Source of the DNA: a virus
Lineage: Duplodnaviria; Heunggongvirae; Uroviricota; Caudoviricetes
Virus record (IMG/VR): IMGVR_UViG_3300012983_000030
Reading direction: 5' to 3' (one strand)
Length of the DNA stretch: 64,000 bases
Below are positions 23,407 to 48,140 of this stretch, in pieces (within the stretch, counting starts at the first letter, position 1; every line of letters starts with the position of its first letter). The translations under genes were made by a program, and so were the position numbers. The notes beneath the pieces are model-generated. The model was not told the origin of the DNA. It ran no database searches and saw only the letters and a list, made by a program, of their open reading frames with translations.

Positions 23407-24906
23407 TTATATAAAAATTAACTGAGAAGTTCCATTTTCATAAACTACTGCGTTACAATGTGCCCATTTTGTCATACCTTTTTGATTATAACTGAGCTTT
23501 AATTTAGATAAAGTTCCAACATAAACTGTTTTTTCAAAAATTTCTGGACTATGTGTATGACCACAAATGCAATCTTCATAGGTTTTATTAAAGGAATTAA
23601 CACTACCTCTTGCTCCTGATATACCAGCATCACCGTGTTCACTTAATTCAATACCAGCAATAGAAAAACTAGTATTTAATTTCAAGTATTGAACATTATT
23701 AGGTAAATACTCACTCAGTATATTTTTGTCATCTAAATACATTTCAAATAATTTTGCTCCTATACGAGCATTTGCCTTATCTTTTGTAAATTCGCCTGTC
23801 TCTAACCATTTTCTAATAAAATCATCATGATTTGAATTTACAATTTTAAATTCTGTATTTTTGAATGAATTTGCTAAATACTTTAAATTAATCACAACTG
23901 CATTTAACTCATCTTCTAATGTCTTAGTTTCCGCAGTAGTATTTTTTACCTTAGATAAATATTGATACATTTCATGATGAGAAATACTATTCCAAGATGC
24001 TACATCATGTAATAATACAGTTTTAGGATTATAAGTAGACATAAATTTCATTGTCTTTTTTAAAGCTTCTTCATCATCTTCTGGTAAATGTAAATCACCT
24101 AATACTAAAGCTGGAATATTTTTAACTTTTTTAACACCATCTGAAGAATATCTTTTATCCAAATCATAAATAAATCCATTTTTATAGACCAAATTACGAA
24201 CAAAATATCTATTATGTTCTTCATTCCATTCTAAAAGGATTGCTCCTAACTTATGATATTTATTGTCAATTTGACCAGCTACGGTTTCTTTATACTCAAC
24301 ATTTGAAATAGTACCGGTTGAACAACCTACTCTAAACGCATTAAATTGTTTGTAAGGTAACATTCTTAAATATTGTTTAGTTGATCCAACAATTATGGTT
24401 GTTAAATCTGTTGATAATTTATCAAGATTCATAAGTGGATTTTTTTGAGTTTGAGGTATTAAAAAATCCTTAGCTAAACAATTACTATCTTTTTCAAATT
24501 CAAAACTCGTTGCTAGATATTTATTTATTAAAGCATAATCGAATTTAGAAAATAATGAATTTTTCTTATATGATTTACCCCATAATATACCTAATTCTGC
24601 TTTATTTTCTTTACAGTAATTCAATAAAGTCGTAAAACAATCAACATTTATCTCTGAACCATCCATAGCATATGTTATTACAACTTTATTTGCTTTTTTG
24701 TTAAATACTTTAGTTGATGCTACGCGTGTAAGTTGTAAAGTAAAATCAGCTTCTTCCATAAAATTTTTCCAAGTACCCCAGATTTTTTCAATGAGACTTG
24801 TTGAATTAGTAGGATTCATTGTACGATATTCACCTCTGGACAATTTCTTACCAGCTAATTTACATAATTCATTAAATTCATTTAAAATTTCTGTCTTACT
24901 TATCAT
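23407..24906 (-). CDS. calcineurin-like metallophosphoesterase/nuclease (T5 A1-like) with N-terminal helical domain
   Basis: GDLH, HD, SNHD, HGD and GHTH motifs, plus C-terminal L.YN.KG...W. Confidence 0.75.
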   Translation of the reverse strand: MISKTEILNEFNELCKLAGKKLSRGEYRTMNPTNSTSLIEKIWGTWKNFMEEADFTLQLTRVASTKVFNKKANKVVITYAMDGSEINVDCFTTLLNYCKENKAELGILWGKSYKKNSLFSKFDYALINKYLATSFEFEKDSNCLAKDFLIPQTQKNPLMNLDKLSTDLTTIIVGSTKQYLRMLPYKQFNAFRVGCSTGTISNVEYKETVAGQIDNKYHKLGAILLEWNEEHNRYFVRNLVYKNGFIYDLDKRYSSDGVKKVKNIPALVLGDLHLPEDDEEALKKTMKFMSTYNPKTVLLHDVASWNSISHHEMYQYLSKVKNTTAETKTLEDELNAVVINLKYLANSFKNTEFKIVNSNHDDFIRKWLETGEFTKDKANARIGAKLFEMYLDDKNILSEYLPNNVQYLKLNTSFSIAGIELSEHGDAGISGARGSVNSFNKTYEDCICGHTHSPEIFEKTVYVGTLSKLKLSYNQKGMTKWAHCNAVVYENGTSQLIFI

Positions 24907-25597
24907 TGTTTACTCTCTTTTTATTAGTAACTTTAGATTTTGCTGATTTCTTTTCTGATTTCAATATTTCTTCATCAAATTTAGCTCTTTTTAATTCATA
25001 TTGTCTTTTTTGAAATAACTCATTTTCAATTATTTGATCACATAAACCATAATGTAAGCATTGTTCAGCACTTAAATAACCACGCTCATCACTTTGTAAT
25101 TTTAATAATTCAGTTTTTGATAATTTATTTTCACAAGCATCTAAATATAAATTTACAATATTATCAGCATATTCTTTATTTTGATGATACATCTTTTCAA
25201 TTTCACTATGTTTAGTAGTAACATCCCAAATACAACCAAAATGAATAAAATGTCTTGACATAGCACTCATATATCTTTGATCACCTTGTACTGCAATCAT
25301 AGAAGCTGCACTTCCAGCTAAACCTAATACAAACGTATATATTTCAATATTATATAATCTTGCCATATTAATTAATCCAATAATGGTTAACATTGTATCA
25401 ACTTCACCACCTGGACTATTTATAAAAAACATTAAACGTTTATTTTGATTTTGTTCGTTTAATATAAATGAAGTCATATCTCCAATTAAATGCGCACAAT
25501 TATCTGCGGTTATAGTATCTAAGATGAATATTTTTTCATTCATCATATAATTCTTAGGTGTTTGATTTGTAATATTATCTGTCGTTCCTGACCACAC
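24896..25597 (-). CDS. clpP: ClpP-like protease
   Basis: INSPGG, GLAGSAAS (catalytic Ser), FIH, YLSAEQCL.YGL.D.I; GTG start with AGGAG RBS. Confidence 0.85.
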   Translation of the reverse strand: MWSGTTDNITNQTPKNYMMNEKIFILDTITADNCAHLIGDMTSFILNEQNQNKRLMFFINSPGGEVDTMLTIIGLINMARLYNIEIYTFVLGLAGSAASMIAVQGDQRYMSAMSRHFIHFGCIWDVTTKHSEIEKMYHQNKEYADNIVNLYLDACENKLSKTELLKLQSDERGYLSAEQCLHYGLCDQIIENELFQKRQYELKRAKFDEEILKSEKKSAKSKVTNKKRVNNDK

Positions 25598-28716: not shown

Positions 28717-29703
28717 TTACTTTAAGTATTCATAAATAGATTTCATTCCAGGACATCCTGTTTCATCAAATTTTAACTGACAACAGTCAGCATTACAGTA
28801 AGTAAAATATTTACAAATCAGACAAGAAGCAGGAATTTGTTTTTCAAAGTTTATCAATTTATTTTTTAAATCCATATTTATTTGATTTAAATTACCATAT
28901 ATGTTATTAGCCATATTTGGACAAGAAGCAATAGTTCCATTTGGATTAATAGTTATTACTCTTTTCATACATTCTCTTGCTCTACAACCAAGAAATATAC
29001 CTTTAATTGAATTTTCTACACCTTCAAATAATGGTATTATTATATCTGTATTTTTTTCGTATAATTTGTATAATTCAAATAAGTATAAATCTTGATCTTT
29101 ATTTGAAGGTTTGACTTTATTAATAGTAGCTCTACCTGTTTCAGTTATTCTTTCAATATTAAAACGTTTAATGTTTAAATTATTAAAAAAATCAAATATT
29201 TCTTGAGGAATTACGTTTTTAATAACATAATCTGTTAAACAAATTATAGGTTGAACTTCTATATTTTCTTTATGTAATAATTTTACATTGTTAATCCATA
29301 AATTTCTTTCATTATCATTAGAAAATCTTAAATCACCAAAATCATATGATGTCATAATCATACTATTATCATCAAAAGGTTTCATTTTATGAAATAACTT
29401 TAAATGAGTATCAGTTATATTATATATAAGATTAGTAGTTATACACCATCTTAGATTTAAATCTTTAGTTTTATCCAAAAAAGATAATGTTTTATTTATA
29501 TCATACAATAGTGGTTCACCACCATGTAATGAAATATCTATTCTATCGTTTGGATTAGTTTTTTTAAATTCTTTTAACCAAACAATAACTTTTTCTAAAG
29601 TCTCATCAGACATTGAATTATGATTATTCATAATTTCATTATAACAATGTTTGCATTTTAAATTACATCCATTTGTTAATTTTATATAAATATTATAATC
29701 CAT
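28717..29703 (-). CDS. radical SAM protein with SPASM-like domain
   Basis: CNLKCKHC, HGGEP, C-terminal CxxC..CNADCC. Confidence 0.93.
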   Translation of the reverse strand: MDYNIYIKLTNGCNLKCKHCYNEIMNNHNSMSDETLEKVIVWLKEFKKTNPNDRIDISLHGGEPLLYDINKTLSFLDKTKDLNLRWCITTNLIYNITDTHLKLFHKMKPFDDNSMIMTSYDFGDLRFSNDNERNLWINNVKLLHKENIEVQPIICLTDYVIKNVIPQEIFDFFNNLNIKRFNIERITETGRATINKVKPSNKDQDLYLFELYKLYEKNTDIIIPLFEGVENSIKGIFLGCRARECMKRVITINPNGTIASCPNMANNIYGNLNQINMDLKNKLINFEKQIPASCLICKYFTYCNADCCQLKFDETGCPGMKSIYEYLK

Positions 29704-30598
29704 TGTTTATTCCTACACATTTATTACATGTATTTAATTTACCTGATGTTGAATTATTTCTTAATTTATTTGCTTTTTCAGAAAACCATATATCTTCTAA
29801 ATTAGAATTCATAATATTACCTATTGTAAATTCTTCATCTATACCAAATCTACAAAGATTTATATCACCAGTAGTTTTTATATGACATAAATTATATAAA
29901 CCAAAACAAGGTAATTCACATAAATGTTTAAGTATTTTTGAATTATTAGATAAATCTATAAATTTGTTATTTATTTTAGCGGCATGATTATAGATTTGAG
30001 TATAATAGTGTTTATCAACTAAAGTATCTAGGTATTTTGAAAAAGAATCTTGCTCAGAATTATTGTAATAAATAGAAGAAGCAGATATTTGTGTTTTAGA
30101 GTTTATATTATTTCTATATTCAATTAATTCCTGCATATTTTGCATTATCAAATCAAAAGTATCACAACCGGTTACATCTAAATGTGATAATTTATTATAT
30201 CCGTTTAATGAAAATTTAATAGATTTTATGTTATTTTCTACAGCATATTTTAAAGGATCTAATAAAATACCGTTTGTAGTAATAAATATAACGCATTCTG
30301 GGTATGTTTTTTTGACGTATAAGATATAGTTTTTGAATTTTGGATGTAATGTACCTTCACCCATATGAAACAAGCCTATTTCTGGAATTTTTAAGCGTTT
30401 TGCTTCATTTATAACTTTATAAAATATTTCATCAGATATAAAGGATTTAGTATTTTTTAATTTTGGTACAATACAGTATGTACATTTATGATTACAAATG
30501 CTTGCTAATTCAATTTTAATTGATTTTGGTAATGTAATTTTATCAGTATCAATGTTATATGCAATATTTGATACCCTATTTATTATAGAGTCTGTCAT
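29693..30598 (-). CDS. radical SAM protein with Twitch/SPASM-like domain
   Basis: CNHKCTYC, TTNG, G.INLC...IGNI...L.DIW...CNKC. Confidence 0.92.
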   Translation of the reverse strand: MTDSIINRVSNIAYNIDTDKITLPKSIKIELASICNHKCTYCIVPKLKNTKSFISDEIFYKVINEAKRLKIPEIGLFHMGEGTLHPKFKNYILYVKKTYPECVIFITTNGILLDPLKYAVENNIKSIKFSLNGYNKLSHLDVTGCDTFDLIMQNMQELIEYRNNINSKTQISASSIYYNNSEQDSFSKYLDTLVDKHYYTQIYNHAAKINNKFIDLSNNSKILKHLCELPCFGLYNLCHIKTTGDINLCRFGIDEEFTIGNIMNSNLEDIWFSEKANKLRNNSTSGKLNTCNKCVGINNGL

Positions 30599-31493
30599 GT
30601 ATAAAATCAGTTATAATTAGTTTTAAAGCTTCAAATTCGGTTTGATTATTTGGCATACCAAATCTAGTAAAAGTATGATTATCAACAACGAATTTATGAC
30701 AAGGTATATTACTAATAACATCTCCATAAAGAGTTATAAAGTTATTAGTTACATAATCTATAGAAGAAGTCAGTTGTATTAATTCTTCTTTATATCTAGG
30801 TTTATCTATATCAAAATCAGTGTTCATTAACCAAGAAAACGCTAAACTATTTATATATTGTTCTCTTTGTAAAGACATTTTATGATGTAAAGATTTTGGA
30901 TAAATAGCAAAACCCAAACGTAAACCACATCCAATTAATTTATCGAAAGAACCAACTATGATATTTTTTGGATTTTTTAATAAAATCTCAATGCTTTGTT
31001 TCATACAATCTATATTTTGGTAAGTTATATCACATATATTATATTTAGCGGTACTTTCATCTAAATCTTTAATTAAACAGTCATATTCAAAACAAGTTGT
31101 TATACCGCAATTTGAATATAAGACATCTGTTTTTGTATTATAAAAGTCTATTGGAGTTTTGAAACTATTATCTGTTTTATCATAGGTAAATTGTTTATAG
31201 ATAGGCTTGATATCCAAAGCTTCACAATATACTTCTAACATCCTCCATGTTGGACCAGCCCAGCATAATGTTTTTGGTTTTAATGCTAATAACACATTCT
31301 TCATTGTATTTTCACAACCATTGCCTAAAAAGAAAGTATCAGGTTGCAAATTAAAGAGTTCACCAAATTTTTTATAAGCATAATACATATCTGGATATAA
31401 TCGAACATTAGTTGTAAGATATGTATCTTCTCCTGGTTCATTTTGTGTAGATAAACCATAGTTTCTTTGTTTATAAGCTTCTCTTTTTATCAT
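30576..31493 (-). CDS. PLP-dependent enzyme, class I/II aminotransferase (HisC/CobD-like)
   Basis: GNGCE, D..Y, SFDK..G.GLRLGF with the PLP lysine. Confidence 0.75.
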   Translation of the reverse strand: MIKREAYKQRNYGLSTQNEPGEDTYLTTNVRLYPDMYYAYKKFGELFNLQPDTFFLGNGCENTMKNVLLALKPKTLCWAGPTWRMLEVYCEALDIKPIYKQFTYDKTDNSFKTPIDFYNTKTDVLYSNCGITTCFEYDCLIKDLDESTAKYNICDITYQNIDCMKQSIEILLKNPKNIIVGSFDKLIGCGLRLGFAIYPKSLHHKMSLQREQYINSLAFSWLMNTDFDIDKPRYKEELIQLTSSIDYVTNNFITLYGDVISNIPCHKFVVDNHTFTRFGMPNNQTEFEALKLIITDFIHDRLYNK

Positions 31494-32298
31494 TTTCCCA
31501 CCATTTTACAAAATTATCACCAATCATCATACCGTTTATATCACATATTTCACAACATTTAAAGCATTGTCTACCTTTAGCAGAAAGCATACCTTTTCTT
31601 TTCTCTTCTAATATATTTACAAAATAATCGTAGATTGAAGTATTGAAAATATTATATTCAGAAACGCTATGATTATTCCAGTCTGCTTCACATTGTAGAT
31701 AATTACCTGTTGTATCTATAAATATTTTATAAAAAGGATAATTACATCTAGTATTTAATTTTACTTTTTTTGTATTTAAATATCCCGCTCTATTGTAAAT
31801 ATTCATTTGTGGATTTTGCATATCATGATTTCTAAACCAAGCTTTGGTATTTTTGAATTTTTCTTTATATTCATTAATTTTATTCCATTCGTGTACAGAA
31901 ATTTTAATTTGAATGGATGGTCCATAATTTTCTATTTCTTCCCAATCTTCTTTTTTTAATAAAGTACCATTAGATACAATAACTATTTTAAAATTACTCA
32001 ATTCTTTTATAATTTGTTTAAAGTTAGGATTTAATGAAGGTTCACCGAATCCAGCTGTACAAATATATCCTTTATAATTAATATTCATTAAGTATTCTTT
32101 TATTTTTAAAATATTATCTAAAGGCATAAATGTTGGATTATTTGTTTTCCAACCTAAAGATTGAGGACAAAATGGACATCTGAAATTACAAATATTTGAT
32201 AAATTTAATTCAATACTACGTAAACAATCAATAGTAGTTTTGACTTCTACATTCTCTACATCATTTTTCCAAGTATTCATTAAAATAGGATTTTCCAT
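31471..32298 (-). CDS. radical SAM protein with Twitch-like domain
   Basis: CNFRCPFC, GFGEP, NRAG, C.YPF..I.ID..G.Y..C..DW...CEIC. Confidence 0.92.
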   Translation of the reverse strand: MENPILMNTWKNDVENVEVKTTIDCLRSIELNLSNICNFRCPFCPQSLGWKTNNPTFMPLDNILKIKEYLMNINYKGYICTAGFGEPSLNPNFKQIIKELSNFKIVIVSNGTLLKKEDWEEIENYGPSIQIKISVHEWNKINEYKEKFKNTKAWFRNHDMQNPQMNIYNRAGYLNTKKVKLNTRCNYPFYKIFIDTTGNYLQCEADWNNHSVSEYNIFNTSIYDYFVNILEEKRKGMLSAKGRQCFKCCEICDINGMMIGDNFVKWWENDKKRSL

Positions 32299-33054
32299 CT
32301 ATATAACCTTATTTTTATAGTCTATCTTATCATTTGATATAACAATACAAGCTGGAATAGAAGGAAGATTTAAGTATAATGCTGCAAAAACTCGACAATT
32401 ACATGCTATAGGATATAACATATTATTATCGGTGAGTAAAAAACAAAGAGGATACTTAAAACCTTCTTCAGAAAATTTTTGTATCCAATATTCAACCTCT
32501 CCTATTTCTTTCCTTGTAGATATCCATTTATTTTTATTTGTTATATAATTTATTTGATCGAAGCTACTAATGATTCTATCAAAGTTTTTTAAATTTATAA
32601 ATTGTATAAAATTGTCTTTGATTTGAACAAATTTTTCTTCTTTAAATAAACTATAATTATTTTTTAGATTCTCAATATTAAGAACTAAATCGGTAGGAGT
32701 TGGTAAAACAGCATCTTTAAACTTATTTATACTTTTATAATATATACCAAAATTAATATTTATGTCAGTATTAATACTACTATATAAAGTTTTATCTAAA
32801 TGAATAGTATTGTTATCTATAACATAATAATTAAAACCTGGATTTAATGAGCATATATCAGTTACTTCATCATTTTCTGAATGCCACTCGATTTTATTTT
32901 TAAATAAATTGTCAGTTAAATTAATACATGTATCGTATCTATACACTAGTCGTGTTAAAAAATTCCCAAAATCTTTTCTATCATATTTTTTGATATCTAA
33001 TTTTGGGAATAATTCGTTTTTTTCTATGTAATTAGCTATTTCTGTATAATGCAT
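32299..33054 (-). CDS. protein with C-terminal ParB/Srx-like motif
   Basis: GFKYPL...NCRVFAALYLNLPSIPACI. Confidence 0.5.
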   Translation of the reverse strand: MHYTEIANYIEKNELFPKLDIKKYDRKDFGNFLTRLVYRYDTCINLTDNLFKNKIEWHSENDEVTDICSLNPGFNYYVIDNNTIHLDKTLYSSINTDININFGIYYKSINKFKDAVLPTPTDLVLNIENLKNNYSLFKEEKFVQIKDNFIQFINLKNFDRIISSFDQINYITNKNKWISTRKEIGEVEYWIQKFSEEGFKYPLCFLLTDNNMLYPIACNCRVFAALYLNLPSIPACIVISNDKIDYKNKVI

Positions 33055-34070
33055 TATGGAATCATAAAATATGGTTTTAAAAATTCATTTAATTTTTCTT
33101 TATTTACTTCTGGTTTAATGTAATATGAAAAATCATAACTTGCAAAAGGTTCACTAATTATACATGCTGGAATAGATGGTAATCCTAAATATTTGGCAAT
33201 AAGTAGTCTCTTATTTGAAAATAAAGGTAATAATGAACCATCTTTTAATAATTTGAATTGTATTACTTTCTTTAGACCATTTTTTGCAACATCTTTTGCT
33301 AAAACATTTAATTTTGTTTGATTTGCACAGCTGTGACCATAATAAATACTTTCTTCAGTATTATAAATTAAAAATTTATTGTCAACAATATGATTTGTAT
33401 AAAATTCTTTAGGTAAGTTTATATACAAATAATTATAATCAAAATATTTATCTTCTAATGCTTTAAATATACCAAATTTAGTTTCTTTTAATTTAGAAAA
33501 TGTACAAACTTCTGGAATATATTCAAAATGTAATGTATTCTGTACTGTTTTTCCAAAATTTTTAAAGATTTCATAATCTTTTATTCGTTTTGCATAATTA
33601 TAAACAGTAATTTTTACATTAATTGTAGTTTCATCATTTAAATAGTGATAAATAGTCTGTGGAATAACCAATGTATCAGTAATCGCATAGTATATCATTC
33701 CATCATAAAAATAGTCTTTTAGCTTATTGAAATTCTGTTCTGTTATTTCATCATTTTCATTAATGATTACATTTTCAAATTGATTTAAAAAATCTTTTTT
33801 TATTTCAAAATATGCACTTTCAGAAACTGATTGACAATCCTGTTGATTGTTAATGCTCAATGGACATGTATCTAATTCCAATTCTGGACTATATTCAGAA
33901 GTACCTAATTTGCTAACAACAAAATTACGATAATCTTGTTCACTTGAATATGTTATTGGAGAGATATCTTTAGTTTCTGCATATATATCATCACCTTCTA
34001 CATATGCAATATCGTCATTATATTTAAGATCTTCATCTTTTAATATAGATACATCTAACATTTTACTCAT
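33054..34070 (-). CDS. protein with C-terminal ParB/Srx-like motif (paralog of 32299-33054)
   Basis: NGLKKVI...NKRLLIAKYLGLPSIPACI; LPSIPACI is identical in both. Confidence 0.5.
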   Translation of the reverse strand: MSKMLDVSILKDEDLKYNDDIAYVEGDDIYAETKDISPITYSSEQDYRNFVVSKLGTSEYSPELELDTCPLSINNQQDCQSVSESAYFEIKKDFLNQFENVIINENDEITEQNFNKLKDYFYDGMIYYAITDTLVIPQTIYHYLNDETTINVKITVYNYAKRIKDYEIFKNFGKTVQNTLHFEYIPEVCTFSKLKETKFGIFKALEDKYFDYNYLYINLPKEFYTNHIVDNKFLIYNTEESIYYGHSCANQTKLNVLAKDVAKNGLKKVIQFKLLKDGSLLPLFSNKRLLIAKYLGLPSIPACIISEPFASYDFSYYIKPEVNKEKLNEFLKPYFMIP

Positions 34071-34788
34071 AACTTAAATTATCCTTAATAAATTGTTCTA
34101 AACCATCCACAAATTGAGTCCATTCTTCTGGTTGATTCATACCATATAATAAAGTATTAAAAGGTGTATAAATACCTATTGTCTCAAATAATTCATTATT
34201 AGTTTCTGTAAAAACATCATCATAGAAAATAGCTTCTGTTTGTACTTCATCATTAAATAATTCAATAAAAAGAGCTTCTTTAATTAAACCACAAATGTTG
34301 TTATTTATAACTATGCCTTTTTCATGTTTTACATCTTTTAAATCTAATGTAGTATCTTCAAAATCTAATCTAGAAATAGGATATAGAGGCAAAGAATATA
34401 TAAATGTAAGTAATTTCATTAAAAACGATTGATTATTTTTAATGAAGATTTCAATTTCGTTATCATTTAAAATAGATTTCGTTTCAAAATATTGATGAGT
34501 GTATATACTCAAAACTTTTATTAAAGTATTGTTGATTTCTTTAATATTATAAATAATATCACCTTCTAAATAAAACTTAATAAAAGCTTCTTTAAAAGAA
34601 TATTCACATTTTGAAAAATCTAAATCTACATCAAAGTTTGTATTTCTTAAGTAGATATATGAAATTCTAACATTATCTTCTGAATTTATTCCAGGGTAGT
34701 TAATATTACTCATATCAACTATTGCCCCTTTTTCTTTTATTTCATTCATAATGTTAAAATCATAAGGTAAATTAGTAAGTATTTTCAA
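34063..34788 (-). CDS. hypothetical accessory protein of the radical SAM cluster
   Basis: TTG start with AAGGAG RBS; directly follows the candidate substrate gene. Confidence 0.7.
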   Translation of the reverse strand: MKILTNLPYDFNIMNEIKEKGAIVDMSNINYPGINSEDNVRISYIYLRNTNFDVDLDFSKCEYSFKEAFIKFYLEGDIIYNIKEINNTLIKVLSIYTHQYFETKSILNDNEIEIFIKNNQSFLMKLLTFIYSLPLYPISRLDFEDTTLDLKDVKHEKGIVINNNICGLIKEALFIELFNDEVQTEAIFYDDVFTETNNELFETIGIYTPFNTLLYGMNQPEEWTQFVDGLEQFIKDNLSYE

Positions 34789-34800
34789 AATTTTCTCCTT

Positions 34801-35490
34801 TTATCGTCTAGATCTCTGATCATGACAATTACTATGACAATTCAAATGACAAGTATACATATTATATGTTAATTGATTTCCAGTATAACAAGTATTATAC
34901 CAAGAATTATAACAGTTAGTTACAGTATTATTAAAAGAAGCAGCAGTTATTTTAGCACCTGCTGTAATTCCACTGTTTGCAGGATTAAGTGTTATAGATG
35001 TTGTACCTTCTCTAGTCCAAAATTTACTTGGATTACCATTTGCACTATCTGCACCACCGGTTACTGCTGGAAATGTATTATTAAATACTGCTCTTCCAGA
35101 TATTTGACTTTTTAAAACACGTGTACCATATTCATTATGATACCAATTTGCATTAAAATATCTTATCTTATTTAAAGCTTGTGTTACAGAAAGCATGCTT
35201 GACCAAAGAGTACTCGCTTTTATAATTGTATCTGAAATAGTTAAACTAGGAGCAGTTTTAGCATTAAACTGAGCTGTTTCAATAGCTTGTTGTGGATTAG
35301 TAAAATAAGTAGTTTGTGTTGTAGTAGTATAATCTACATTAGCAGTTGCTGCAAATTGAGGTAAATTTCCAGTATGGTATGTAGCAAAATTATAAATAGG
35401 TGTAGATACTCTAGCATTAAAATCGTTTATGCAGCCAATTACGCTTCCAGATGTAGCTTTTCTAATTACTTGTCCTGCTGTTACAGTCAT
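34801..35490 (-). CDS. candidate radical-SAM substrate protein with C-terminal (CHxN)-repeat tail
   Basis: T/N/A/S-rich body ending in TCHLNCHSNCHDQRSRR. Confidence 0.65.
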   Translation of the reverse strand: MTVTAGQVIRKATSGSVIGCINDFNARVSTPIYNFATYHTGNLPQFAATANVDYTTTTQTTYFTNPQQAIETAQFNAKTAPSLTISDTIIKASTLWSSMLSVTQALNKIRYFNANWYHNEYGTRVLKSQISGRAVFNNTFPAVTGGADSANGNPSKFWTREGTTSITLNPANSGITAGAKITAASFNNTVTNCYNSWYNTCYTGNQLTYNMYTCHLNCHSNCHDQRSRR

Positions 35491-36390
35491 TTATTTCTCC
35501 ATACTTTCTATTATTTTATATAAACCTGAACAGTATGGTTTTTTAAAATCTACTAAATGCTCAGCTTTACATTTTTTATAATACTTACATAAATTACATT
35601 GTTCAAAATATAATTTTTCTTCTATTTTACAGTGTTTTTCCCATTCGGTTAAAGAGTTAAATTCTATATTTTGTTCAATATCACCATTATATATAATGGA
35701 ACTATAATTACCGCTTGGATTTATAAATAGAAAACTATTCATTGTTGGAACATATTTGTCATCATTTAATATAATTTTATTAGTTATTTCAAAGCTATAA
35801 TTACCTTCACTATGATATTTTAATATATCATATAAAAATTTTACATATTCTTTTGTTGTAATATTATATTTGAATGAATTGTTGATTGAAGGATGATATT
35901 GAATGAAAAAAACGTCATGACCTAATTTTTCATAAAAATCTAATAAATCTTTTGTGTTTTTATTTAATATAGATGGTAAAACAACTATTGCTAATTCATG
36001 TTTAGTTTTTAGTTGTCGTAAATTATATAAAGTATTTTTATAATTATCTCTTTCTTCATTTAAAGAAATAGATACAGGTATATTATATTGATTACAAAAA
36101 TCAATGAATTTTATATTTGAAAGATTTGTAACAAAAGAAATATTATACTTTTCTAATAGTTTTATTAATCGTAAAAGATATTCATTTGGCAATAAAGATA
36201 TTTCTCCACCATATATTGAAATATGATGAATATTATATTGGTCTTCTAATTCAATCAAGCGCTCTTTTAGTATATTTAAATCTAAGACAGTTTTATCTTT
36301 TTTTAAATCACCAAGATAACAATATCTACAGTTAAAATTACAATAAAAAGATGGAATTATTGAGAGTTGTAAGGGTTTTTTTGTATCCAT
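35491..36390 (-). CDS. radical SAM protein
   Basis: CNFNCRYC, YGGEISLL, C-terminal CxxC...C..EH...CSG. Confidence 0.93.
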   Translation of the reverse strand: MDTKKPLQLSIIPSFYCNFNCRYCYLGDLKKDKTVLDLNILKERLIELEDQYNIHHISIYGGEISLLPNEYLLRLIKLLEKYNISFVTNLSNIKFIDFCNQYNIPVSISLNEERDNYKNTLYNLRQLKTKHELAIVVLPSILNKNTKDLLDFYEKLGHDVFFIQYHPSINNSFKYNITTKEYVKFLYDILKYHSEGNYSFEITNKIILNDDKYVPTMNSFLFINPSGNYSSIIYNGDIEQNIEFNSLTEWEKHCKIEEKLYFEQCNLCKYYKKCKAEHLVDFKKPYCSGLYKIIESMEK

Positions 36391-37520
36391 TTTTTATATC
36401 TTTCTTTTATTTCAGGATTTTCTTCAATATATTTATGAGCACGTTTATATGGACAATCAGTTGGAGTAAAACCTTCAAATACAACAGAAACCCAACATGG
36501 CATTTGACAAGTTTTATAATATTCACAATTTAAACAACCTCTTTTCATCATACCAAGAGATAATTTTATATCGCTCACATTTTCTTCAGTAATTATATCT
36601 GCGTATTTACCATAAAACATTTCTGCCGGTAAAATAGATGCTCTTTTTACACAATCTACTGTCGCTTGACCATTTGAATATTGTACACAAGTTTTACAAT
36701 CACAATAGTGTTGAGGTATATAGATTCCTTCATTTATAGTTGTGTTTACTAAATTACTAATAACATTTATATAATATAAATCATTATCTAAACCCCATTT
36801 AAAAAATGTAAATAAATCATCATCATTTGGTAATAATTCTTTCCAATTTGGATTAGCGGTATAAAAATTTATATCATATCTTTCATTAAAATCTAGTCTA
36901 TCTAAATCAGATTTTCCAGATACATATTCTTCTATTGTCTTTTTAGTTAAAGTAATTGATAAACAATTAAAGCATTTCATTTCGTGAAAATATTTTACGT
37001 TAGATATCATTAATTCTTTTTGCTTTTCAGAAGAAAATCTACCACTAGGATCATAGCTGAAACCTATTGTACCATTTGAATATTTTAATATATCTAGTAC
37101 TCTATCACGTTTTGTAAATACTCCGTTTGTTAACCAAGAGTATTTCAGTGTTATTTTTGGAAATTCTGTTTTAAACAAGTTATTAAAAGTATCTACAAAA
37201 TTTTTATATTCTTGAAACAATGAATCTGGCAAACCATCAAAAAATAGCTCACCTCCCCATAACCGAACATTAACTTCTTGTATATTAGGATATTGTTTAA
37301 AATCTTTTCGTACAGCTTTCATTACTTCAAAAGGAATATTTCTAATATAATTTAAATCAATTTTATTATTTCTATGTCCTTCGAAACAAAATTTACATTT
37401 TAAGTTACAAGCTTCAAATAAAGAGCAAGCTATTTCATAAGATTTTGGATCTTTATAAAAAGGTATTTTAGGTAATTCAGATGGCATATCAATATTACTT
37501 ATATCTAATAACTTACTCAT
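36357..37520 (-). CDS. radical SAM/SPASM protein
   Basis: CNLKCKFC, WGGE, C-terminal CLNCEYYKTCQMPC. Confidence 0.93.
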   Translation of the reverse strand: MSKLLDISNIDMPSELPKIPFYKDPKSYEIACSLFEACNLKCKFCFEGHRNNKIDLNYIRNIPFEVMKAVRKDFKQYPNIQEVNVRLWGGELFFDGLPDSLFQEYKNFVDTFNNLFKTEFPKITLKYSWLTNGVFTKRDRVLDILKYSNGTIGFSYDPSGRFSSEKQKELMISNVKYFHEMKCFNCLSITLTKKTIEEYVSGKSDLDRLDFNERYDINFYTANPNWKELLPNDDDLFTFFKWGLDNDLYYINVISNLVNTTINEGIYIPQHYCDCKTCVQYSNGQATVDCVKRASILPAEMFYGKYADIITEENVSDIKLSLGMMKRGCLNCEYYKTCQMPCWVSVVFEGFTPTDCPYKRAHKYIEENPEIKERYKKWIQKNPYNSQ

Positions 37521-38310
37521 TTATTACTCTTTCATATAATTTTTTAGGAAAGCTACACACATGTTGTAATTTACAAGGTTTACATTTTCCAGCTAATTTA
37601 CAAGTTAAACATTCTTTTAATACGAACTCTTTTTCGTTTTGAGGACAACCTCTTTTTAGTTCTCCATTTGGATATAAAGTAAAAATATTATCGCAATCAC
37701 AATTCCAATTTAGTACTCTATCCTTGATTATATTTTTAAATTTAAATTTCCATTCTTTGTCTATTTTACATAACCATTCATCGGCTTGTATGTGTAAATC
37801 ATTTTTTATATTATAATCAATCAGATGTTCGAATAAAATTCCTTCTATTGCATTATAATTATTCCATTCATATAAATATTTTAGAAAACTTGATATTTCT
37901 AAATCAATTAAATCTTTTGTCATAGTTATTAAAACAATACATTTCATATCATATTTTTCTAATAACTTTAAATTATTTAGCCAAAGTGTATATTGTTTAT
38001 CAGTGAATCGTTGCAAATTCCAAGAAGTTGCTATGGAAATCTCTTTTTGTTTTAATATTTTAATAATATTTTCGTCTAGCAATAACAAATTGGTTGAAAT
38101 AGATGTAATTTTATTACTATTAATCAATTTTAAATATCTGTCTTTGTGTAAAAGAGGTTCACCTCCGAATAATACATTTTCTGAAAAATTAGTTTCAGAA
38201 AAAGCTTTGTAAAAAGAATTTTCATTGAAATCATCTTTTCGTAAATGTAATTCACAATGCGGGCAGTTTAGATTACATGTAAAATTAGGAATGATGTATA
38301 ATTTGCTCAT
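37513..38310 (-). CDS. radical SAM/SPASM protein
   Basis: CNLNCPHC, FGGEP, TSWN..RFT, Cys-rich C-terminus. Confidence 0.93.
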   Translation of the reverse strand: MSKLYIIPNFTCNLNCPHCELHLRKDDFNENSFYKAFSETNFSENVLFGGEPLLHKDRYLKLINSNKITSISTNLLLLDENIIKILKQKEISIATSWNLQRFTDKQYTLWLNNLKLLEKYDMKCIVLITMTKDLIDLEISSFLKYLYEWNNYNAIEGILFEHLIDYNIKNDLHIQADEWLCKIDKEWKFKFKNIIKDRVLNWNCDCDNIFTLYPNGELKRGCPQNEKEFVLKECLTCKLAGKCKPCKLQHVCSFPKKLYERVINE

Positions 38311-39217
38311 TTTTTATCTTTTCATATAATTTTTTAGGAAAAGTACATTTTTCTTGAATATTACATCCACCCTTACAAATAGGATAATATTCACATTGGT
38401 AACAAAAAGGTTTTTGAGGCTCATATTCATAATAAGGACAACCATCTTTTAAATAACCGTTTGGCATAATAGTAGTTGTAGTTTTACAGTAATTTTTCCA
38501 AATACGTTTACCTTCAATAATTTGTTTAATTTCATTAAAAATTAAATTTAATGGCTTTTTAAATTTCCAAATATCATATAATTCACATAACCATTTGTCA
38601 ACAGCTTCAAAATCATTAGTTAAATCACCAATCATTTGTTTTAAATCAATATTTCTACATTTTTCCCAAGAACAAACCAAGTTATAAAAATCTAATGGAT
38701 TCATCTGAATTAAATCTTTAGTTAATGTAATCATAACAGAATATGAAATATTGTTATCATTTAAAATTTTTAATTGTTTTAACCAATGCTGATATTGTTC
38801 ATTAGTAAAACGTTTTGGATTCCAAGATGTATTTACATCTTCTACTTTTTTCATTAACTTTATTTTATAGGGAGTTAATTTAGAAAGTAAATTTGTAGAT
38901 AAAATAATTCTAGTATTATCAAAAAATTCTTCAAATATTTTTAACTCTTCATCTTTTAATAGTAGTGGTTCACCACCAAATAAATTAAAAGTTAATGTTT
39001 CATCATTTACCATACGAATAAAACGCATAGTATTATATACTTTATCTAAATAACGTTGAGGAGTAATATCTTTTAATGTACAATGAGGACAATTAAGATT
39101 ACAAGTAAAATCAAAACAAACAAATATTTCTTTCATTTGTTGTAATCTATTAATTTCAAATGTATCTAGAGGTTTACCCATATTATAATGAGTTATACCA
39201 TTTATCATATTTTCCAT
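38285..39217 (-). CDS. radical SAM/SPASM protein (paralog of 37513-38310)
   Basis: CNLNCPHC, FGGEP, TSWNPKRFT, CYQCEYYPICKGGC, CTFPKKLYE. Confidence 0.93.
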   Translation of the reverse strand: MENMINGITHYNMGKPLDTFEINRLQQMKEIFVCFDFTCNLNCPHCTLKDITPQRYLDKVYNTMRFIRMVNDETLTFNLFGGEPLLLKDEELKIFEEFFDNTRIILSTNLLSKLTPYKIKLMKKVEDVNTSWNPKRFTNEQYQHWLKQLKILNDNNISYSVMITLTKDLIQMNPLDFYNLVCSWEKCRNIDLKQMIGDLTNDFEAVDKWLCELYDIWKFKKPLNLIFNEIKQIIEGKRIWKNYCKTTTTIMPNGYLKDGCPYYEYEPQKPFCYQCEYYPICKGGCNIQEKCTFPKKLYEKIKNEQIIHHS

Positions 39218-40161
39218 TGTGCCTCCAGAATCTTATTTTTTCTTTTTAACATTTCTTCACAATGGTTTAAAGTGAGTTTATTTGTATTTCTATTCATTTT
39301 ACAAGCGTTACAAAACTTAAATAATTCACAATATAAACATTTATCATTTATAACTTCATCAATTGGAATATTATTTTCTATAGGAGGTACTCTATCTGTA
39401 TCCAGTGGGATACGAAAACCTTCATTTGCACAATCTTCACAGTTACTATATTGAATAGCGTTATTATTATCTAACCAAAAAACTCTAATAGTAGATTCAC
39501 ATAAAAGATTAGTATTAAATCCACATCCACCTTCATAAAATTGTATTTGAGAATCTAAATATTCTTCTAATCCCAATTCTTTTATTTTTAACCAAATATC
39601 AACCATTTTATAACGAGGGTAGAAATCTTTTGATTTTCCCATAGCAGATAATGGATTTAATTTACATTTAGTATTTAATTTTTTAGCCAAATATACATGA
39701 TCTAAAGCTTTTTCTTCATTTTCATTTGTTATTACTGAAATAAATGAGGGTACGTAACCTACTTTTTCTTTAAATAATGTCATTACTTCTATAAATTTAG
39801 CTTCTGTATAAGGAGTATTTTTATCCCATAATCTACCAGTACCATATTGAAAAGATGTACAAATTCCAATACGGTTATTTTTAAATAGATTTGTCCATTT
39901 AGAAGGATTTAGATAAAAGTCTTTTAAATTGGTAGTAAATGAAATATTCCAATCACCTAAAGTAAGTAATTCTTCATAATAAGAAGGAGACATCATTAAA
40001 GGATCTCCTCCAGTAATGATTAAATTATCAGGTTTTATAGTAAAAAGGACTTGTTTTAATTCAGAAGGAACTTTAGTTATAGTCTTTATTTTTAATAAAC
40101 CAGCACTGCAAAAATTGCAGTTAAAATTACATCTAGATGTCGGTTTAATTATCAATTCCAT
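39205..40161 (-). CDS. radical SAM/SPASM protein
   Basis: LIIKPTSRCNFNCNFC, GGDP, CLYCELFKFCNAC. Confidence 0.93.
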   Translation of the reverse strand: MELIIKPTSRCNFNCNFCSAGLLKIKTITKVPSELKQVLFTIKPDNLIITGGDPLMMSPSYYEELLTLGDWNISFTTNLKDFYLNPSKWTNLFKNNRIGICTSFQYGTGRLWDKNTPYTEAKFIEVMTLFKEKVGYVPSFISVITNENEEKALDHVYLAKKLNTKCKLNPLSAMGKSKDFYPRYKMVDIWLKIKELGLEEYLDSQIQFYEGGCGFNTNLLCESTIRVFWLDNNNAIQYSNCEDCANEGFRIPLDTDRVPPIENNIPIDEVINDKCLYCELFKFCNACKMNRNTNKLTLNHCEEMLKRKNKILEAQWKI

Positions 40162-40554
40162 TTATAAATCCACTAAAAATTCTTTTTTACAGTAAGCTAT
40201 TGTTTTTTCTATAGAAGGATATTTCCAAACATTACCTATTTTCAATAATATATAGTCATATCCTTTTTTATATCTAGAATACGTATATTCTTTGAAGTAT
40301 TTATCATCAGGTAACAATTCTTCATCATCTAATAATTCATAAAAAGGTATATTAAATAATTCTTCTAACACTTTAGCATAAACAATTGCCACAAAAATAC
40401 TTTTTGCTGGATATATTAATTTTGATTCAGTTTTAAAAAATTTAATTACTTGTTGATTTATTCGTTTAAAATCAACAGTATATTCTAAATTAACATCATC
40501 CCATTCATTTATTGAATAAGATAATAACCTTCTTTGTTTTAAATCATTTCGCAT
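40162..40554 (-). CDS. hypothetical protein heading the left radical-SAM operon
   Basis: 130-aa ORF abutting the first rSAM gene. Confidence 0.7.
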   Translation of the reverse strand: MRNDLKQRRLLSYSINEWDDVNLEYTVDFKRINQQVIKFFKTESKLIYPAKSIFVAIVYAKVLEELFNIPFYELLDDEELLPDDKYFKEYTYSRYKKGYDYILLKIGNVWKYPSIEKTIAYCKKEFLVDL

Positions 40555-41169: not shown

Positions 41170-41871
41170 ATGAAAAATGAATTGATAAAATACTTGAATG
41201 ACAATGCTAATGTAAAATATATTCAAAATGAAAATGATATAGAGATTTCTGTATTATCTACAATTTCAGAAGAATGCTTAATTTCAACATTAGGTAATAT
41301 ATTTGCAATAGAAAACAAAGCAGTTGAAAATAAAGAAGAATTATATATTAAATTATCACTTAGGGAGTTAAATACTAAACAATTAATAGCTGCATTTAAA
41401 TTTGTATTAAATCAAGATACAATAAATGATAGTTTAACAATATTAAATATTCTCAATTTAATTAAGAGCAATACTTTAGAAGAATCATTTTTTGAAGATA
41501 AAAATGTATACTCTAAGTCTTTGGTTGAATATTTAGACGTTAAATTAGAAATAAAAGATGAATTAAAAGAATTTGTTAAAAAGTTTAGCTTTTATTTCTA
41601 TTCAATGATTAAATCATGTGGAAAACCAATTGCCAATGGTAAAGATACTGTTGTAAAATTGCCAGATGTATACTATAATATTTTTGTTTCTTTAGATTTC
41701 ATGACACTTTCTAGAATTGCAGCGACTTGTGATGATGTAAATTTAGCAGATTGTGGATATATAAGTTGTGCAAGAGAATTAATTTATAATTCATTGAAAG
41801 ATTATTTTATAGGTAATACAATGTTAAATATGTTTTTAGAGGGTTTAGATAATGCCGATGATTGCGAATAA
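41170..41871 (+). CDS. hypothetical accessory protein
   Basis: 233 aa; overlaps the start of the poly-Ser protein. Confidence 0.7.
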   Translation: MKNELIKYLNDNANVKYIQNENDIEISVLSTISEECLISTLGNIFAIENKAVENKEELYIKLSLRELNTKQLIAAFKFVLNQDTINDSLTILNILNLIKSNTLEESFFEDKNVYSKSLVEYLDVKLEIKDELKEFVKKFSFYFYSMIKSCGKPIANGKDTVVKLPDVYYNIFVSLDFMTLSRIAATCDDVNLADCGYISCARELIYNSLKDYFIGNTMLNMFLEGLDNADDCE

Positions 41872-42505
41872 TGTAATAACATATTCTGATGTTATTAACC
41901 ATGTTACAAATAAAATAGTAAAGGCTTGTGCTAATGCTGATAAATTTACATCAGATGTGCATTATTCTTTAAAGAATCAAACATCATTTACTTTGATTAA
42001 AGATACTGTTTCACCAAAAGGACAAAATGCTTATGTTAATGTAAAAGTAAATGATGCTCTTGGTGTTACTGTAAGTTCATCTACTATTAAAAATCAATTA
42101 AATGACTTTTTAACATCTCGTGGTGTAAAAACTCAATCTAATAAACCAATTTCAATGAAAGGTATGATGAATTTATATAATAATATAGCAACTTTTATTA
42201 CTCGAAGATTAGTTGTTGTAAATTCATCTTTTAATATTGGTAAACAATTAATTTTTTATAATGCGACTAGTAATTTATCATACAATACAGTAAATTTTGG
42301 TAATTTTAATGAATTAAATTTTAATGGTACTGAAATGCAAGCTTGTATTAATAATTTGATGAATTCATTAAATCAAAAAGTAAAAGTAAAATATATAAAC
42401 ACAGTAATTACAAACACTTGTTCATCAAGTTCAAGCTCTTCTTCAAGTTCTTGTTCTTCAAGTTCGTCATCGAGTTCAATGTTTATTGCATATATGGATA
42501 TCTAA
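41852..42505 (+). CDS. candidate radical-SAM substrate protein with C-S10-C-S8 tail
   Basis: C-terminus TCSSSSSSSSSSCSSSSSSSSMFIAYMDI, encoded by mixed TCN/AGY codons. Confidence 0.65.
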   Translation: MPMIANNVITYSDVINHVTNKIVKACANADKFTSDVHYSLKNQTSFTLIKDTVSPKGQNAYVNVKVNDALGVTVSSSTIKNQLNDFLTSRGVKTQSNKPISMKGMMNLYNNIATFITRRLVVVNSSFNIGKQLIFYNATSNLSYNTVNFGNFNELNFNGTEMQACINNLMNSLNQKVKVKYINTVITNTCSSSSSSSSSSCSSSSSSSSMFIAYMDI

Positions 42506-42506
42506 A

Positions 42507-43079
42507 ATGCCTTTGTATAATGTAAAATATTCTGATATAACAACACCAGTTTTGAATTATATGTTAAACAATTGTCAAAATCTAGATAGTAGATTTGATT
42601 CAATTCCATTATGTTTTAAAGCAGGATATTCAATTACAGTAAATCAAAGTCATACTTGGAGTAAAAAGAGTAAAGCCTTTAAAGGTTGTCAATATATTCC
42701 TATATATAGATATACTATTCAAGGAAAAGTTATCAATAAATATACAGCAGCTCAAGTTCGTCAAGATTTTACTAGCAAATTTAATACAAGTGATGCAATA
42801 GTACCGAATCATCAATTTTATGAGCTTTTAATAAATTTAATTAATTATGCTTCTAGTAGAATGGCAATATTTTCTAGTCAATTTAGTCCAAACGTTAACT
42901 ATTTAGCATATGTAATGGAAAATACAGTTACCCATCCAATGGATGATCCACATCCTCCTTTAGTGACAGCAACTACAACGGAAGATTTATTAACATATCT
43001 TACTCAAATGTTAAATTCTAATGTATATAATGTTGTATGTCAATATAAATATGAATATATATCAAGCAGAGAGTTTTGA
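42507..43079 (+). CDS. paralog of 41852-42505 lacking the Ser tail
   Basis: Start re-called to ATG 42507; shares YSD, C.N.D and (S)SxF motifs and spacing. Confidence 0.6.
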   Translation: MPLYNVKYSDITTPVLNYMLNNCQNLDSRFDSIPLCFKAGYSITVNQSHTWSKKSKAFKGCQYIPIYRYTIQGKVINKYTAAQVRQDFTSKFNTSDAIVPNHQFYELLINLINYASSRMAIFSSQFSPNVNYLAYVMENTVTHPMDDPHPPLVTATTTEDLLTYLTQMLNSNVYNVVCQYKYEYISSREF

Positions 43080-47249: not shown

Positions 47250-48140
47250 ATGAAAAAAGCAATACGAGTACATATATTACCTTTATATAGATGCGATATA
47301 AATTATTCGTATTGCTTATATCATTCTATTAAAAATGATAAAAATACTTTGGATTTAGTGACACTAGATAATAAACTTTCTGAGATAAGCACAAAATATG
47401 ATATTGTGCAAATTAACATTGCAGGAGGTGAAATATCATTACTATCTGATTTTTATTTTGAAATGCTTTATAACCTTTGTAAAATTTACTGTAAAAAAAT
47501 ACAGGTTTTTACTTCTTTCTTTAAAGTGAATAAATCTCTGATAAATAGCTGTGAAGTTATAAATGTACTTTATAATTTTTTAAATCCTAATAAAATGGTG
47601 GTTAGTAATATTCAAGCTGCTGTAGCAAGTGATAAAATTATAAACTTAAAAGCATTTGATATTTATTGCAACGATGACACTATACAAATGATTAATCATA
47701 TAAATACAATGAAAGTAAAATCATTTGAAATATTGCCATATATAAAATCAACAGAAGATTATACTTTTTGTGAAAATAAAATTAAAGACTTTTTAAAAAA
47801 TTCAAATAAAATGAAATTTGCATTTCAAAATAAATTACAATTAGACAAAATATTACAAATAGATAACTATAATGTTAAAAATATATTTATTTTACCAAAT
47901 GGTAAATATGGACTACAAACTTTTGAAAACAATAACTTTTTCTTTAAAGAATATGACGAAATAGAAGAATTTTCAAAAAATATTGAAGAATTAGAAATTT
48001 TTCGCGATAAAATTTGCAAAAATTGTACTTCTAAATTACAGTGTATGGCTAATTACTTTTTAAACCTCAGTTACGTTGGAAAATCATGTTGTGGATTTAA
48101 AGACTTAGTAGAAGATTATAAAAAAGGTAGGCAGCAATGA
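47250..48140 (+). CDS. radical SAM-like protein with degenerate cluster motif
   Basis: CDINYSYC instead of CxxxCxxC; GGEISLL; paralog of 35491-36390. Confidence 0.8.
   Translation: MKKAIRVHILPLYRCDINYSYCLYHSIKNDKNTLDLVTLDNKLSEISTKYDIVQINIAGGEISLLSDFYFEMLYNLCKIYCKKIQVFTSFFKVNKSLINSCEVINVLYNFLNPNKMVVSNIQAAVASDKIINLKAFDIYCNDDTIQMINHINTMKVKSFEILPYIKSTEDYTFCENKIKDFLKNSNKMKFAFQNKLQLDKILQIDNYNVKNIFILPNGKYGLQTFENNNFFFKEYDEIEEFSKNIEELEIFRDKICKNCTSKLQCMANYFLNLSYVGKSCCGFKDLVEDYKKGRQQ

Follow-up and report, generated by a model that had tools for sequence, protein, structure and literature searches.

Gene content of the locus

The window, which is the whole 64,000-nt stretch of DNA analysed here, belongs to a large AT-rich T4-like phage with genes for a portal protein, a prohead protease, GroEL, an endolysin, SbcC and fibres. 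On its minus strand, positions 34801–35490 encode, from an ATG start, a protein of 229 aa with the C-terminus CHLNCHSNCHDQRSRR (ORF translation), referred to below as the tailed protein. A first-pass annotation had pointed to this gene for its T/N/A/S-rich product, a C-terminal Cys-His core closed by RSRR, 12-nt periodic DNA at 34822–34851 and five rSAM genes directly upstream. All of these features are present: T, N, A and S together make up 45% of the residues, the ending is exactly as claimed, the periodicity reflects the coding of a four-residue repeat and nothing more, and five abutting genes with PF04055 matches occupy 35491–40161. Within the 64-kb window the codon pattern for Cys-His-x-x-Cys-His occurs solely at 34822–34851, as two overlapping matches where 0.05 are expected, a count reached in 0 of 100 shuffles. 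The tailed gene and the cassette around it consist of the following features:

40162–40554, minus strand: conserved accessory protein, 130 aa, phrog_20737; first gene of the operon
39205–40161, minus strand: rSAM/SPASM protein, 318 aa, third core enzyme; in 13 of 15 wide loci
38285–39217, minus strand: rSAM/SPASM protein, 310 aa, clade-specific; in 0 of 15 wide loci
37513–38310, minus strand: rSAM/SPASM protein, 265 aa, clade-specific, paralog pair with 38285–39217; in 0 of 15 wide loci
36357–37520, minus strand: rSAM/SPASM protein, 387 aa, second of the core enzymes, with duplicates in close relatives; in 15 of 15 wide loci
35491–36390, minus strand: rSAM with C-terminal Cys cluster, 299 aa, a less universal cassette member; in 9 of 15 wide loci, counting matches to its paralog at 47250
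34801–35490, minus strand: tailed protein, 229 aa, with a body of about residues 1–212 and a C-terminal core
34804–34851, minus strand: the core, residues 214–229, three Cys-His-x-x units plus RSRR
34063–34788, minus strand: partner, 241 aa, non-enzymatic; among loci with sufficient flank, in 42 of 42 of the long class and 28 of 28 of the short class
29693–34070, minus strand: clade-specific insert that separates the partner from the core rSAM
33054–34070 and 32299–33054, minus strand: two paralogs of no known kind (insert)
31471–32298 and 29693–30598, minus strand: two short rSAMs (insert)
30576–31493, minus strand: HisC-like PLP enzyme (insert)
28717–29703, minus strand: core rSAM/SPASM protein, 328 aa; best NCBIfam model DynA, below cut-off

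The rSAM array of the window phage comprises 13 genes. All five upstream rSAMs contain a CxxxCxxC motif and C-terminal Cys clusters; four have the arrangement Cx2Cx5Cx2-3C, and the 35491–36390 product has a shorter version. The 36357-type enzyme is present in up to four copies in locus L001, and the insert at 29693–34070 is also found in L002 and, in part, in L178 and L001. Scans for promoters and terminators gave results at chance level.

Several genes lie near the cassette or resemble its members. The rSAM encoded at 47250–48140 (plus strand) is a paralog of the 35491–36390 enzyme (E 1e-9) in which the middle Cys of the cluster is replaced by Tyr, and it is possibly inactive. A second tailed protein, encoded at 41852–42505 (plus strand), ends in Cys-punctuated poly-Ser with a conserved hydrophobic cap and, together with a separate set of rSAMs, is conserved in L001 and L174; its neighbour at 42486–43079 (plus strand), also found in L001, lacks a tail and aligns weakly to it (18% identity). 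Homology of this pair to the body of the Cys-His protein was considered and is unsupported (hhalign 6%), as is paralogy of the two acidic partners (1.4% on a shallow alignment). In L002, a ClpP-like protease gene (937–1743, Pfam match) lies a few kb from the cassette, and the window gene at 24896–25597 (minus strand) is similar to it by eye.

Body fold and distribution of the tailed protein family

The AlphaFold model of the tailed-protein monomer is a compact alpha/beta domain of helices and strands (pLDDT 71, pTM 0.68) with a poorly ordered tail. Searches of Pfam, NCBIfam, PHROG, PDB sequences, Foldseek-PDB and VIA gave no family or fold, and the top VIA rows (IglD/TssK, Z 4.5–4.7) are within noise. 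The body had been described initially as fibre-like, which the compact monomer model does not support, with no PHROG or PDB match and a best VIA Z of 4.7; as modelled, it is a folded carrier. Cys193 and Cys201, in the last predicted helix, are invariant in the close clade and not in the wider family, and could form inter-subunit disulfides.

Ten close relatives share 40–97% identity with the tailed protein over its full length, and on the 241-kb contig L174 the cassette recurs around a tailed protein that is 95% identical. Profile searches recovered 135 clusters at 50% identity, nearly all of which finish with R-x-R-R after two to five units of Cys-(His/Tyr)-x-x, and a DNA pattern for the tail by itself was found in at least 120 IMG/VR stretches and in 47 stretches from genomes, these being for the most part MAGs of Bdellovibrionota. 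In a Bdellovibrionota sample the family is patchy, being found in 5 of 151 genomes. When the tails were removed, 124 of 136 long motif proteins encoded at these loci still matched the body profile at E≤1e-3, compared with 2 of 3886 decoys. Because the tail-less bodies are homologous, these proteins form one family with a conserved body rather than a set with convergent tails. Foldseek detected three significant viral matches to the model, all uncharacterised proteins of 173–296 aa, the top one being Atu_ph07 gp170; the tail-less body HMM recovers this protein (E 9e-12) as well as the bacterial copies. Two Bacteriovoracaceae chromosomes (L186:5240–12473 and L187:5410–15756) carry the same cassette as a compact island, with no recognised phage structural genes within 10 kb. 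Tandem pairs of short proteins of 125–140 aa with the same tail, in L007, L032, L040, L060, L083 and others, make up a short twin class that matches the body profile weakly.

The 241-aa partner, although modelled with high confidence (pLDDT 91), belongs to no known family or fold and has no clear PDB match; its best structural match is the rSAM ChlB (Z 3.8) and its Atlas leads are low-scoring. Complex prediction of the partner with the tailed protein scored 0.14, which counts neither for nor against an interaction. The partner may act as a chaperone or recognition factor.

Linkage of the tailed family to rSAM genes

A search for the C-terminal motif and a tally of neighbouring genes had been suggested as a check on the proposal that the tailed protein is an rSAM substrate. 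Homologs were found mostly with rSAM neighbours: among the 42 long-class loci with adequate flanks, the partner is present in all 42 and a 28717-type core rSAM in 39. The 28717-type ortholog is the gene immediately upstream of the tailed gene in 81 of 116 loci, and of the cultured phages, five distinct ones possess the core rSAM, each with the tailed gene directly behind it. The closest link to the family is therefore that of the enzyme at 28717–29703 and not of any of the five upstream rSAMs to which the first-pass annotation had implied a link. In the clade of the window phage this core gene has shifted 5 kb downstream, behind the inserted PLP module. By best hit, the 28717 and 36357 types are found in all 15 wide loci, followed by the 39205 type (13) and the 35491/47250 type (9); the 37513 and 38285 types, both of them clade-specific, are found in none.

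In the short class the partner is located 1–3 kb downstream and the rSAM genes lie farther off on the contig, and all five twin short contigs without an adjacent rSAM carry four to five rSAM genes elsewhere. L003 and L004 were considered as an rSAM-free exception and set aside, as their contigs stop ~0.1–0.5 kb downstream, short of the position of the core rSAM in their clade. At L003:8304–10958, the gene that immediately precedes a close homolog (56%) is fibre-like, with a faint BppL_N match, and stands in the place of rSAMs; the partner is kept. A long T/S/G/N-rich ORF was found within 5 kb upstream of 29 of 56 viral motif genes, a count with no background control; the window gene has no such ORF and is not beside the fibre genes of its phage. 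The tail, the partner gene and the core rSAM set are thus shown to travel together, and from this pattern in the genomes the C-terminal tail is very probably an rSAM substrate, as had been proposed.

A homolog in Atu_ph07 particles

Evidence from particles comes from Atu_ph07 gp170, a distant homolog with 12% identity to the tailed protein in the structural alignment, and was obtained with a PEG preparation (PMC6102473). In this preparation, which was made without gradient purification and in which the particles bear hair-like whiskers, gp170 was identified by 8 peptides covering 35% of its sequence, and the neighbouring rSAMs and partner (gp165–169 and gp171) are absent from the same table (PMC6102473, Table S5). 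Gel-slice values transcribed from that table show that among the 37 proteins of 25–45 kDa with at least four peptides, gp170 alone peaks in slice 1, the rest peaking in slices 4–13; the weaker identifications gp321 and gp616 peak in slice 1 as well. The position of a 32-kDa protein in the top slice after boiling in SDS points to an assembly that is resistant to SDS and heat. Since the loading buffer lists no reductant, disulfides suffice to account for this position, and radical cross-links are one option.

Two roles had been offered for the ~200-aa body, namely an unusually long leader and a structural carrier. The carrier fits better, given that the body is a conserved fold and that gp170 is found in particle preparations, and on the strength of this one homolog the tailed protein probably stays a full-length component of the particle. 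It is also conceivable, albeit rather unlikely, that the cassette would cross-link the tails of different subunits to one another, or the tails to some large protein of the particle. The covalently stitched appendage formed in this way, for which the hair-like whiskers of Atu_ph07 could be an example, would account for the slice 1 peak of 32-kDa gp170 despite boiling in SDS.

Variation of the tail and candidate chemistries

The tails of the window clade are informative because they include natural Tyr/Trp, His-free and Cys-free variants that discriminate between the candidate chemistries; in other clades the tails are nearly invariant and offer no such discrimination. In counts that are phylogenetically non-independent, the residue following the core Cys is His in 355 units, Tyr in 27, Trp in 1 and another residue in 7. 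The non-His residues are thus 80% aromatic, compared with 21% of His substitutions in the orthologous cassette proteins, and at least 17 changes from His to Tyr or Trp can be placed on a tree built without the tails. In a set chosen by a pattern for Cys-His with positions +1 and +2 left free, and likewise phylogenetically non-independent, Gly is found at +2 after the aromatic residue in 0 of 873 units, the position being taken by Ser, Asn, Ala (34 times), Asp and similar residues, and at +1 Gly is found in 145 of the 873; in background proteins, Gly replaces Ser or Asn about as frequently as Ala does (113 vs 95). Third units often drop the Cys and read Trp/Tyr-x-(Asp/Asn/Ser). The tails of P0079 (CYFNCYSDYSSRTRR) and P0073 are free of His and that of P0119 is free of Cys; all three retain the partner and rSAM neighbours, with the core rSAM present alongside P0079 and P0119, the contig of P0073 being too short to tell.

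A Gly-free +2 position combined with an aromatic +0 position is the signature expected if the C-beta hydrogen at +2 is abstracted and the carbon joined to the ring. The variation observed in these tails favours aromatic-X-X cross-linking, and an aromatic-to-C-beta link would, with modest confidence, be the main chemistry. The ease with which a single C-to-T change turns His into Tyr weakens this reading, and the exclusion of Gly at +2 could be structural instead. In 110 aligned rows the first Cys of the core is invariant. Aromatic chemistry alone does not account for this, so that a further enzyme may in addition modify the tail at Cys.

The first-pass annotation had named both aromatic-X-(N/S/D) cross-links and Cys thioethers of the ranthipeptide/NxxcB type. 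The former fits the variation of the family better, and the spacing of the latter is not found, the residue three before the Cys being His. A tail modified mainly on Cys, by thioethers to the C-beta or C-alpha of the Ser or Asn three residues on or by Cys oxidation, would make the His a spacer or secondary site and is considered unlikely. It would suit the Cys at every fourth residue (three per core in 93 of 131 cores) and the invariant first Cys, its acceptor too would need a non-Gly residue, which agrees with the Gly exclusion, and SPASM enzymes are known to form such links (PMC11002830). However, Cys-free units are not predicted by a Cys-only chemistry, and third units often lack Cys and yet keep Trp/Tyr-x-(Asp/Asn/Ser), a Cys-free tail keeps its cassette, the spacings Asn-x-x-Cys and Cys-x3-Asp are absent, and the PapB model scores 43 against a cut-off of 340 bits.

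The plain metal-binding tail that had been put forward as the alternative is weakened by the same variants. Clusters of Cys and His are typical ligands of Zn or Cu, and an unmodified tail that binds metal or forms disulfides, with the rSAMs making a small molecule or cofactor or acting elsewhere, would be compatible with the gel position of gp170, since disulfide oligomers alone could hold it at the top in a buffer with no listed reductant; the PLP enzyme and short rSAMs of the clade cassette would also suit small-molecule chemistry. Against this, aromatic replacement is not predicted for a metal site, and His is replaced by Tyr and Trp, which are poor ligands, rather than by Asp or Glu; tails devoid of His or of Cys are found in cassettes that remain intact; and the PLP module is clade-specific, whereas tail, partner and core rSAM occur together almost universally. 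An unmodified tail is therefore improbable. Least probable of all is a classical RiPP, in which the 212-aa body would be a long leader and the modified 16-mer would be released as a dynobactin-like inhibitor or for superinfection exclusion: the core resembles that of a RiPP in size and appearance, the enzyme comes nearest to the model of the dynobactin maturase, a ClpP-like gene lies near the L002 cassette, and HXS provides a case of rSAM-dependent processing of a His-x-Ser protein (PMC13128918), but the body is a domain conserved in its fold across phages and bacteria, the homolog gp170 is found in particles with 35% coverage, and none of the cassette genes inspected was recognisable as coding for a protease or exporter.

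Proposed maturation of the tail

As a whole, the evidence is best explained, with somewhat more belief than doubt, by a conserved phage rSAM cassette that would mature the tail of a retained particle protein. The 241-aa partner would help to present the tailed protein, and the core rSAM/SPASM enzyme at 28717–29703, together with the 36357- and 39205-type enzymes, would abstract a hydrogen from the C-beta of the residue at +2 relative to each His. This carbon, belonging to Ser, Asn, Ala or Asp and never to Gly, would join the aromatic ring of the His, or of Tyr or Trp in the variants, as in the triceptide and dynobactin maturases, in up to three triplets; at 34804–34851 the proposed cross-link sites are the three His-x-(N/N/Q) triplets of the core. 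More speculatively, the Cys residues and the terminal Arg may carry further changes introduced by the remaining enzymes. The matured tail, rigid and basic, would stay on the folded body and assemble with it into an SDS-resistant, particle-associated structure.

If this account is true, cyclophane chemistry of the RiPP type is not confined to short peptides but extends to a folded virion protein that keeps its modified tail, large phages that are unrelated and predatory bacteria have a maturation step in common, and the cassettes are a supply of divergent cross-linking enzymes. For phage rSAM arrays, which have no assigned substrate in the papers searched, it names a substrate, points to the likeliest enzyme and makes predictions at the level of single residues, which can be tested in the cultured phages Atu_ph07, RSL2, SURPRISE13, Phosso and pPa_SNUABM_DT01, all of which have laboratory hosts.

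Comparison with known rSAM systems

No published description of the tailed family was found in the literature searched, which covered few subscription papers. The scores of the five upstream rSAMs lie far under the cut-off of each NCBIfam maturase model. The systems most similar in chemistry are the triceptides, for which the enzymes HaaB, YhhB, HtkB, ScaB, XncB and MscB form three-residue cyclophanes, linking the ring of His, Tyr, Trp or Phe to the C-beta of Ala, Ser, Asn, Asp, Lys or Arg within a triplet (PMC11499958, PMC11002830). The tail is alike in having His, Tyr or Trp at position 1, C-beta-bearing Ser, Asn, Asp or Ala at position 3 (no Gly in 873 units) and rSAM/SPASM genes alongside. 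It differs in that the substrate is a folded protein of 229 aa rather than a short leader-core precursor, in the Cys before each triplet, the four-residue periodicity and the R-x-R-R end, and in the several rSAMs, new partner and phage-encoded cassette. The AmcB, YhhB, GrrM/OscB, XyeB and FxsB models score at most 39 bits against the phage rSAMs, with cut-offs of 310–450.

Among the enzyme models, the core rSAM is best matched over its full length by DynA (NF041298; E 1.8e-21, 76.6 bits, cut-off 450); its score with the DarE model of darobactin is 35.7 against a cut-off of 650 bits. DynA links a His nitrogen to a C-beta and Trp to the C-beta of Asn, the acceptor carbons lying two or three residues off, and comparable links are proposed for the phage tail; the DynA substrate is a released decapeptide, unlike the protein with three repeats described here.

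Ranthipeptides made by enzymes of the PapB, CteB and NxxcB type similarly have a Cys at every fourth residue beside SPASM enzymes, and the core has three Cys. Their acceptor spacing is Asn-x-x-Cys or Cys-x3-Asp/Glu, which the phage tail does not share, as His stands at position -3 from the Cys, and Cys or Arg at +4. Unlike in the ranthipeptides and CXXX targets, Cys is dispensable in some members of the phage family. The CXXX-repeat target models TIGR04114 and PF27846 gave no match at E 0.1 with the tailed protein and its ten relatives, and the nearest named Atlas cluster to the tailed protein is a Cys-rich repeat target with a low score of 0.75.

In its design, the phage cassette resembles HXS, which also combines a folded protein bearing basic His-x-Ser repeats with several rSAMs and a small partner (HxsA/B/C/D), and which is a bacterial defence system with an exported, peptidoglycan-binding effector and Cys-free repeats (PMC13128918). 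The phage protein has Cys-His-x-x repeats instead and a body without a Pfam or NCBIfam domain, and the phage rSAMs score at most 30 of 370 bits with HxsB (TIGR03978) and at most 23 of 268 bits with HxsC (TIGR03977). The phage system accordingly falls outside the triceptide maturase, DynA/DarE and HXS families, and also outside ranthipeptide spacing and TIGR04114; by analogy, it appears to act most like triceptide and dynobactin maturation, in a design that resembles HXS.
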